Origin: a virus
Taxonomy: Duplodnaviria; Heunggongvirae; Uroviricota; Caudoviricetes
Strand: one strand, 5' to 3'
DNA: 25,161 nt
Virus record (IMG/VR): IMGVR_UViG_2851938318_000004
Shown here: one piece after another, positions 23,899 through 25,161 of the stretch
Layout of the letters: the number at the start of each line of letters is the position of its first letter
Position numbering within the stretch: the stretch's first letter is position 1
Notes under the pieces: generated by a model
What the model saw: the letters and a program-made list of their open reading frames with translations, nothing else
Database searches by the model: none
Told to the model about the DNA's origin: nothing
Program-made: the position numbers and the translations under genes

Positions 23899-23947
23899 AA
23901 TGTTGTGAACCGCCCCGGGTTTCCTGGAGAGTGTTTTATCTGTGAAC

Positions 23948-24838
23948 TCAGGCTGCCAGATCATCGTTTCCGATGGAAGCATAATAAGCTTTTTCTGCTT
24001 CTGCCGGAGGAGTATGGCCCAGCCTTCCCAGCAATCGTCGATTGTTATACCAGTCCACCCACGTTAGTGTGGCCAGTTCCACTTCTGCACGGTTTTTCCA
24101 GCTCTTACGGTGTATTACCTCCGCTTTGTAAAGACCATTGATGCTCTCAGCCATCGCGTTGTCATACGAGTCGCCTGTACTCCCTGTTGATGCCAGTAAT
24201 CCGGCTTCTTTTAGTCGCTCCGTATAGGCCAGTGACACATACTGAGAGCCTTTATCGCTGTGATGGATGGTGCCAGACGGACGACGGGCCCACAACGCCT
24301 GCTCCAGCGCATCCAGCACGAATGTCGTTTCCATAGACGATGAGACCCGCCACCCCACGATGTATCCGGCAAACACATCAATGATAAACGCCACATAGAC
24401 GAAGCCCTGCCATGTGCTGACGTAAGTAAAATCAGCCACCCACAGCTGGTCAGGTCGTTCTGCCACGAACTGACGGTTTACGCGGTCGCCTGCGGCAACG
24501 GCTTTCCGGCTGATGGTCGTACGGACCTTTTTACCCCGGAGAACACCGGCAAGTCCCATAACCGCCATGAGACGTGCCACTGTACATCTGGCCACCCTGA
24601 TTCCTTCCCGTAACAACTGACGCCAGACTTTACGCACACCGTACACCTGATGATTTTCATCGTATACGCGCTGTATCTCTCTCTTCAGCCAGTCGTCGTG
24701 CTGCGCACGGGCACTGCGTTTATCCGGATGATGTCGCTGTTGCTGACAATGGTAATACGTTGACGGGGCAATATGCAGTTCGCTGCATACCGGTCCGACC
24801 CCGTACTGCTCACGCAGCTTATCCAGCAGTGGCATCAT
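23948..24838 (-). CDS. IS3-family transposase OrfB (IS629-like), copy 2
   Basis: Protein identical to the copy 1 OrfB. Confidence 0.9.
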
Positions 24839-25161
24839 TTTTTCCAGAGGCGGTCGAACTCCGCCTTCGCAAAATAAGCGGAAGCCTGGCGAAGGATATC
24901 GTTACTGCGGCGCAGTTCACGATTTTCACGTTCCAGCTCTTTCAGACGCTGACGTTCAGCGCTGGTGAGCCCACCATCACCGCCCCCGGTATCCCGCTCA
25001 TGCTGGCGAACCCAGACACGCAGAGTCTCCGGCGTACAGCCAATCTTTGGGGCAATGGAACAAATTGCCGCCCACTGTGAGTCATATTCATCCTGACTTT
25101 CCAGAACCATACGAATCGCCCGCTGACGGACTTCGGGGGAAAAACGAGTATTTTTAGTCAT
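24835..25161 (-). CDS. IS3-family transposase OrfA (IS629-like), copy 2; start codon is the last three bases of the window
   Basis: Protein identical to the copy 1 OrfA. Confidence 0.9.

Follow-up and report, generated by a model that had tools for sequence, protein, structure and literature searches.

Results

Two directly repeated IS629 copies in an E. coli O111 prophage

The DNA analysed here, a stretch of 25,161 nt that we call the window, aligned end to end with the genome of E. coli O111:H- strain 11128 (NC_013364.1, approximately 1,121,285-1,146,445). The alignment contained a single mismatch, at position 2214, which places the source of the window very close to 11128. This mismatch lies inside one of two IS copies and is a SNP private to the window's strain. 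The prophage is integrated between yccA and tRNA-Ser, and its features relevant to this study are listed below.

1-714, minus strand: integrase gene (L001 4984-5999 in 11128)
2055-3364, minus strand: IS629/IS1203 copy 1, complete, 1310 bp, in the prophage exonuclease gene
3365-23905: inter-copy segment, 20,541 bp between the direct copies
20634-20636: GGA target within the holin gene (20583-20789), site of a third IS629 in strain UTME-6
23278-23592, plus strand: PerC-family (Pch-like) regulator gene, 104 aa, Pfam PF06069 (E=3.8e-44), convergent with ylcI
23674-23898, minus strand: ylcI (YlcI/YnfO family, DUF3950), 74 aa, start codon read as CAT at 23896-23898 on the plus strand
23899-23905: seven-nt spacer AATGTTG (CAACATT on the gene strand) from the IS terminus to the ylcI start codon, very probably the left breakpoint of a ~22.6-kb deletion
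23906-25161, minus strand: IS629/IS1203 copy 2, 1256 of its 1310 bp in the window, which ends on the orfA start codon
23948-24838, minus strand: copy 2 orfB, 296 aa, HTH_21 and rve domains (rve E=9e-28)
24835-25161, minus strand: copy 2 orfA, 108 aa, HTH_Tnp_1 domain

Both IS copies (copy 1, and copy 2 in its full length in 11128 at L001 29191-30500) are 1310 bp long, start with TGAACCGCCCCGGG and end with CCGGGGCGGTTCA. In the window, the TGAACCGCCCCGGG terminus of copy 2 begins at 23906 and is the end downstream of orfB, which faces ylcI. The terminal inverted repeats beginning with TG and ending with CA, together with the length of ~1.3 kb, are as expected of IS629/IS1203. It has the organization of the IS3 family, with two ORFs that overlap (at 24835-24838), an HTH domain in orfA, a DDE/rve domain in orfB and a programmed -1 frameshift; RefSeq annotates copy 2 as an IS3-like element IS1203 family transposase with a programmed frameshift and an AL1L pseudoknot. 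We keep the name IS629, which was used in an earlier note on this DNA, for the element that RefSeq assigns to the IS1203 family. As that note had described, the terminus of copy 2 at 23906 lies 7 nt away from the start of a small gene at 23898, and the two copies have the same (direct) orientation and bracket ~20.5 kb. Across the 1256 nt of copy 2 present in the window, one base distinguishes the copies, G at 2214 in copy 1 and T at 24065 in copy 2. It falls in the third position of orfB codon 258, where CTC and CTA both encode Leu; the orfB translations are identical, confirming the single synonymous difference reported before. In 11128, the copies are identical over the shared 1256 nt.

The inter-copy segment contains the 5′ part of the exonuclease gene, dicB, the immunity and replication genes, Q, three tRNA genes, and the esterase, holin, lysozyme, Rz, perC-like and ylcI genes. 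The PerC-family gene presumably corresponds to the Pch group of LEE activators, and the accession of its protein is identical in the O157 and O103 counterparts. At ~17546-20135, downstream of the Q antiterminator, a tRNA-Ile/Arg/Arg cluster is followed by a gene for a 616-aa SASA-family (NanS-p-like) esterase, as is typical of the late regions of Shiga-toxin phages; the 11128 annotation lists no stx genes here. All O111 strains inspected have an integrase annotated as frameshifted, and so does the neighbouring tandem prophage of O26:H11 strain 11368.

The small gene next to copy 2 encodes a YlcI/YnfO family protein

The product of the small gene scored above the curated cut-offs of both family models, Pfam PF13132 (E=1.8e-18, 66.6 bits, cut-off 25) and NCBIfam NF041551 (34.6 bits, cut-off 30), and it belongs to phrog_949, a group of unknown function. 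It is identical to the RefSeq protein WP_001303940.1, which is also encoded in an intact O157:H7 prophage. No title or abstract on the function of this family was found in the literature on ylcI, ynfO and DUF3950. The earlier note was correct in placing a small gene here, but its label of the gene as an RHH gene is unproven: no Pfam RHH family matched the product at E<=1, and a sequence search against the PDB gave no meaningful match. A low-confidence single-sequence AlphaFold2 model (pLDDT 53.5) contained helices at residues 19-30 and 37-54 and no strand, and the product matched a HicB-like phrog weakly (E=0.011). Judged by its sequence pattern, an RHH fold is plausible for YlcI.

Copy 2 is very probably the scar of a deletion

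The earlier note had described copy 2 as inserted upstream of the small gene, and had itself named, among the findings that would count against its reading, a far flank lacking a target duplication together with evidence of arrival by recombination. In 11128, copy 2 ends at L001 30500 and is followed by GGTCAGAGC, 32 nt past the stop codon of tccP2; beyond it lie tccP2, a truncated espV (espV′), tRNA-Ser (attR) and hyaA. When both flanks were compared in 11128, no 3- or 4-bp target duplication was found at copy 2: the near flank ends in AATGTTG, giving TTG on the left versus GGT on the right. In contrast, the 3-bp duplication of a simple IS629 insertion is present at copy 1 (GTC/GTC) and at the holin copy of UTME-6 described below (GGA/GGA).

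A 200-nt empty-site query made by joining the two flanks of copy 2 was searched against 5426 complete E. coli RefSeq genomes. The two flanks were contiguous in none of the 5426. The prophage of O103:H2 strain 129 encodes Q, holin, lysis and PerC proteins identical to those of the window and agrees with the O111 prophage in the order and orientation of ylcI and tccP2; in it, the equivalents of the two breakpoints are 22,559 bp apart (L013 24707-47265) and are separated by the terminase-to-tail-fibre genes.

In intact prophages, the sequence upstream of the ylcI spacer continues as CCCCATATTC and leads to cos and the terminase genes. An intergenic region of ~390 bp after ylcI contains the cohesive-end sequence GGGCGGCGACCT, which we take to be the lambda-type cos sequence, and is followed by the genes for the small and large terminase, portal, head, tail and tail fibres. 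The O157:H7 prophage that encodes the identical YlcI protein also has cos (GGGCGGCGACCT) and terminase genes right after ylcI. In O103:H2, O26:H11 and O157:H7, tccP2 directly follows the tail-fibre genes.

Copy 2 therefore has the hallmarks of an IS-associated deletion joint, that is, a retained IS with unmatched flanks that lie apart in intact relatives. These findings match the case against a simple insertion that the earlier note had set out in advance. A direct transposition of copy 2 next to ylcI, 7 nt from its start codon, into a prophage already organized in this way would be consistent with a junction exactly at the IS terminus and with TTG as a plausible 3-bp target. We consider it very improbable, because the far end has no target duplication, the flanks are contiguous in 0 of 5426 genomes and they are 22.6 kb apart in an intact relative. 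Judged from these sequence comparisons, copy 2 is very probably the scar of a ~22.6-kb deletion rather than a simple insertion. Through this deletion, a lambdoid prophage of E. coli O111 lost cos and its entire set of morphogenesis genes, from terminase and portal through head and tail to the tail fibres. Since cos and all virion genes are lost, the O111 prophage can no longer package DNA or build virions.

Copy 1 is a later, simple insertion

The exonuclease gene was split by the simple insertion of copy 1, which is flanked by the GTC duplication at 2052-2054 and 3365-3367. Among the matches listed, its junction was found in one piece in 38 genomes. The exact 200-nt empty site of copy 1 was found in O111 strain 95JB1, where the exonuclease gene is intact and copy 2 is present, indicating that copy 1 is the younger insertion.

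These data bear on the suggestion of the earlier note that the two copies form a composite-transposon-like unit. The formal resemblance holds: as in composite transposons, two near-identical direct IS copies flank a block of genes, and the outer ends, one from the orfB side and one from the orfA side, are a formally valid pair. However, joint mobility of the two copies with the intervening 20.5 kb, past or present, is scarcely credible. The GTC/GTC duplication of copy 1 and its empty site in 95JB1 indicate that the copies arrived separately; the outer flanks, GTC to the left of copy 1 versus GGT to the right of copy 2, show no duplication around the unit; and every occurrence inspected sits at yccA-tRNA-Ser, with no second location. 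Unlike in composite transposons, copy 2 of the O111 pair is, moreover, very probably itself a deletion joint.

Nested deletion states at the O111 locus

The complete ylcI-IS-tccP2 joint, searched as a 2710-nt query, was found in 38 genomes, all of them O111 where a serotype was named. Tight 240-nt queries for the individual junctions returned 52 and 46 genomes, and we use 38 as the complete-joint count. A looser junction search had returned 309 genomes; this number was rejected as inflated, because separate pieces had been joined and O26-type strains with IS629 on the other side of ylcI had been included.

The IS-tccP2 junction was identical across strains whose other junction differs. Five states of the latter were distinguished, given here with the last retained window base.

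Main O111 joint (window), 23905: IS abuts the upstream spacer of ylcI
95JB1, 22636: IS abuts a truncated Rz/Rz1 gene
08-4377, 21288: IS lies between the holin and lysozyme genes
UTAK-8, 20636: IS lies inside the holin gene
E2863, 2054: one IS links the left flank of copy 1 directly to tccP2

The PerC-family gene is missing from the locus in 95JB1, 08-4377, UTAK-8 and E2863, and O111 strains thus differ in the copy number of this regulator.

E2863 has the exact deletion product of recombination between copy 1 and copy 2, matching the predicted sequence in one piece over 2710 of 2710 nt and lacking the 20,541-bp inter-copy segment and one IS copy. This confirmed the earlier proposal that the two copies are a substrate for deletion; inversion, which had been proposed alongside it, is not expected, since direct repeats cannot invert by homologous recombination.

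The UTAK-8 breakpoint lies at the GGA site in the holin gene, and strain 7-55 62A has a breakpoint at the same nucleotide. A surrogate IS end in the holin gene was initially considered as the cause of this common breakpoint and was dropped once a real third copy had been found. A junction between a third IS629 copy and the holin gene, with a GGA duplication, was predicted and then found in UTME-6 (260 of 260 nt in one piece). In this strain, the holin gene is interrupted by an IS629 in the same orientation as, and upstream of, the usual ylcI-IS629-tccP2 joint. UTAK-8 has the layout holin′-IS-tccP2, exactly the product expected of recombination between the holin copy and copy 2. Together, the third copy in UTME-6 and the junction in UTAK-8 indicate that UTAK-8 is a recombinant of these two copies. 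In 7-55 62A, the holin copy is gone together with ~17 kb, the loss reaching to within 8-10 nt of the right end of copy 1, and the joint shows a GG microhomology (GTCAGGCTGG/ATACTGG) exactly at the right end of the holin-copy site. This joint resembles the IEE-associated IS629 excision with deletion described in PMC9943667. The same kind of event keeps recurring at this locus.

Possible routes to the copy 2 joint

Two routes could have produced the copy 2 joint, and the final sequence would be the same under both. In one, two IS629 copies of the same orientation would have inserted, at TTG 7 nt upstream of ylcI and at GGT 32 nt past the stop codon of tccP2; their homologous recombination would then have removed the intervening DNA and left one copy with unmatched flanks. 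In the other, a single IS629, most simply one next to tccP2, would have undergone a one-step, transposase-dependent and IEE-assisted adjacent deletion, in which the site 7 nt upstream of ylcI, far away in the prophage, was connected to one end of the IS or to a break at that end, with loss of the intervening DNA.

We give about an even chance to the route by two same-orientation insertions and homologous recombination. It has two direct precedents of IS-by-IS recombination at this very locus, namely E2863 and the step from UTME-6 to UTAK-8. Its intermediates were reconstructed as GGGGCGGTTCATTGCCCCATATTC at ylcI (IS end, TTG and the cos side) and AACTGTCAGGTTGAACCGCCCC 3′ of tccP2 (tail-fibre side, GGT and IS start). 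An IS end followed by TTG-CCCCATATTC, which would mark an insertion at ylcI with the cos side intact, was absent from the 5426 genomes apart from two-piece artefacts; the counterpart junction, in which GGT and the IS start come after the tail-fibre side, was likewise absent from them, apart from two-piece artefacts in other prophages. The reconstructed junction of a third-copy intermediate for the 95JB1 breakpoint in Rz was also not found in the complete genomes.

This lack of two-IS intermediates, for the main joint and for 95JB1, among the 5426 genomes would fit adjacent deletion, as would the constancy of the IS-tccP2 junction while the other junction varies in five states and the fact that every further loss starts at the orfB-side end of the IS. 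Passages of PMC9943667 that cite Kusumoto et al. 2011 describe IEE-dependent excision of IS629 accompanied by adjacent deletions of a few nt to >40 kb, and place IEE in O111:H8; the GG microhomology joint of 7-55 62A fits such excision plus deletion. On the other hand, the UTAK-8 variant is explained by a documented insertion, that of UTME-6, followed by IS-by-IS recombination, and the apparent one-sidedness could reflect selection to keep tccP2. Copy-out-paste-in transposition alone, in addition, is not expected to delete donor DNA (bioRxiv 10.1101/2023.06.07.543989). We regard a one-step adjacent deletion as a serious possibility that falls somewhat short of an even chance.

A broader scheme can be considered, in which same-orientation IS629 copies land repeatedly and then recombine with the copy anchored by tccP2. 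All three new IS629 copies observed (3/3) were in the same orientation. We consider this ratchet rather unlikely. If true, deletions would proceed step by step from the virion end of the prophage towards its integrase, always sparing the effector junction; IS629 insertion would then be biased in orientation or target, and selection would favour the retention of tccP2.

Consequences for ylcI

The IS terminus cuts ylcI from its original upstream region, as the earlier note had claimed: the native context in intact relatives is TATGGGG-CAACATT-ATG, whereas in the window it is GGTTCA-CAACATT-ATG. The gene has thus probably lost its native promoter region and a GGGG Shine-Dalgarno-like motif. A promoter scan of 23550-24250 found no sigma-70-like promoter on either strand, and hence neither an outward nor a hybrid promoter; a hybrid promoter at the IS end would be of no help to ylcI because the start codon is just 7 nt from that end. 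The IS transposase genes point in the same direction as ylcI, and no terminator-like site was found on the minus strand between orfB and ylcI. With no promoter nearby and no terminator in between, read-through from the IS would be the sole route by which transcription could reach ylcI, where it would meet a poor ribosome-binding context. Expression of ylcI is probably low or absent.

A 102-codon frame that begins at an ATG within the IS (23982), in a different frame from the end of orfB, continues in frame into ylcI (23674-23982, minus strand). This frame could encode an N-terminally extended YlcI fusion, and it has no evident ribosome-binding site. Read-through or the in-frame extension from the IS could create a new, IS-driven expression state of ylcI.

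The ylcI-cos neighbourhood appears to have been hit by IS629 repeatedly and independently. In O26:H11, O103 and other strains, an IS629 lies on the other side of the ylcI homologue, a few tens of nt from its 3′ end (e.g. NC_013361.1 631396-631960). Other strains carry an IS629 ~65 nt or ~385 nt upstream of a ylcI, in one group beside the tape-measure gene.

Discussion

That IS629 inactivates genes, causes deletions and structural polymorphisms and drives the decay of prophages in enterohaemorrhagic E. coli is well documented (Ooka et al. 2009 Genome Res; Kusumoto et al. 2011 Nat Commun, both as cited in PMC9943667). As in those cases, the O111 locus involves the same IS in the same host group, an IS that is kept at a deletion joint without target duplication, the loss of prophage genes beside the IS, and nested deletions between close strains. 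Nothing essential differs from the decay described there, except that at the O111 locus the series can be traced stepwise in one prophage: an insertion in UTME-6, its recombinant in UTAK-8 and the product of copy 1 and copy 2 in E2863. The copy 2 scar is an ordinary case of the known IS629-driven prophage decay and reveals no new mechanism.

The deletion explains why the O111 prophage is permanently locked in the chromosome. The locked prophage still delivers the type III effector TccP2, whose gene is intact next to attR in 11128, and, in most strains, the PerC-like regulator. The natural series of insertion, recombinant and further recombinant shows how IS629 whittles down prophages in pathogenic E. 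coli, and O111 typing could make use of the junction states to mark lineages.

The O111 prophage has its counterpart in the Sakai Sp4 or CP-933M-type prophage of O157:H7, which occupies the same yccA-tRNA-Ser site. The O157 and O111 prophages share the proteins of the Q-to-lysis module, with identical lysozyme, lysis-protein and PerC accessions, and have tccP2-espV′ by attR; Sp4 carries tccP2 (EspF2-1′) and espV′ as ECs1126 and ECs1127 (PMC5931665). Their routes of decay differ. Most virion genes are kept in the O157 Sp4-type prophages, with the small terminase and major capsid genes annotated as partial, an ISEc8 at the small terminase gene, an inverted segment from holin to ylcI′ and a frameshifted tccP2, whereas the O111 prophage lost all virion genes at the IS629 joint and has an intact tccP2. 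In the O157:H7 strain Z910 (L011, NZ_CP062752.1 3539000-3588900), the block from holin through lysozyme, Rz and PerC to ylcI′ has the opposite orientation to its neighbours, ylcI is truncated, ISEc8 lies in the small terminase gene and tccP2 is frameshifted. Z910 represents a different decay route of the same prophage type.
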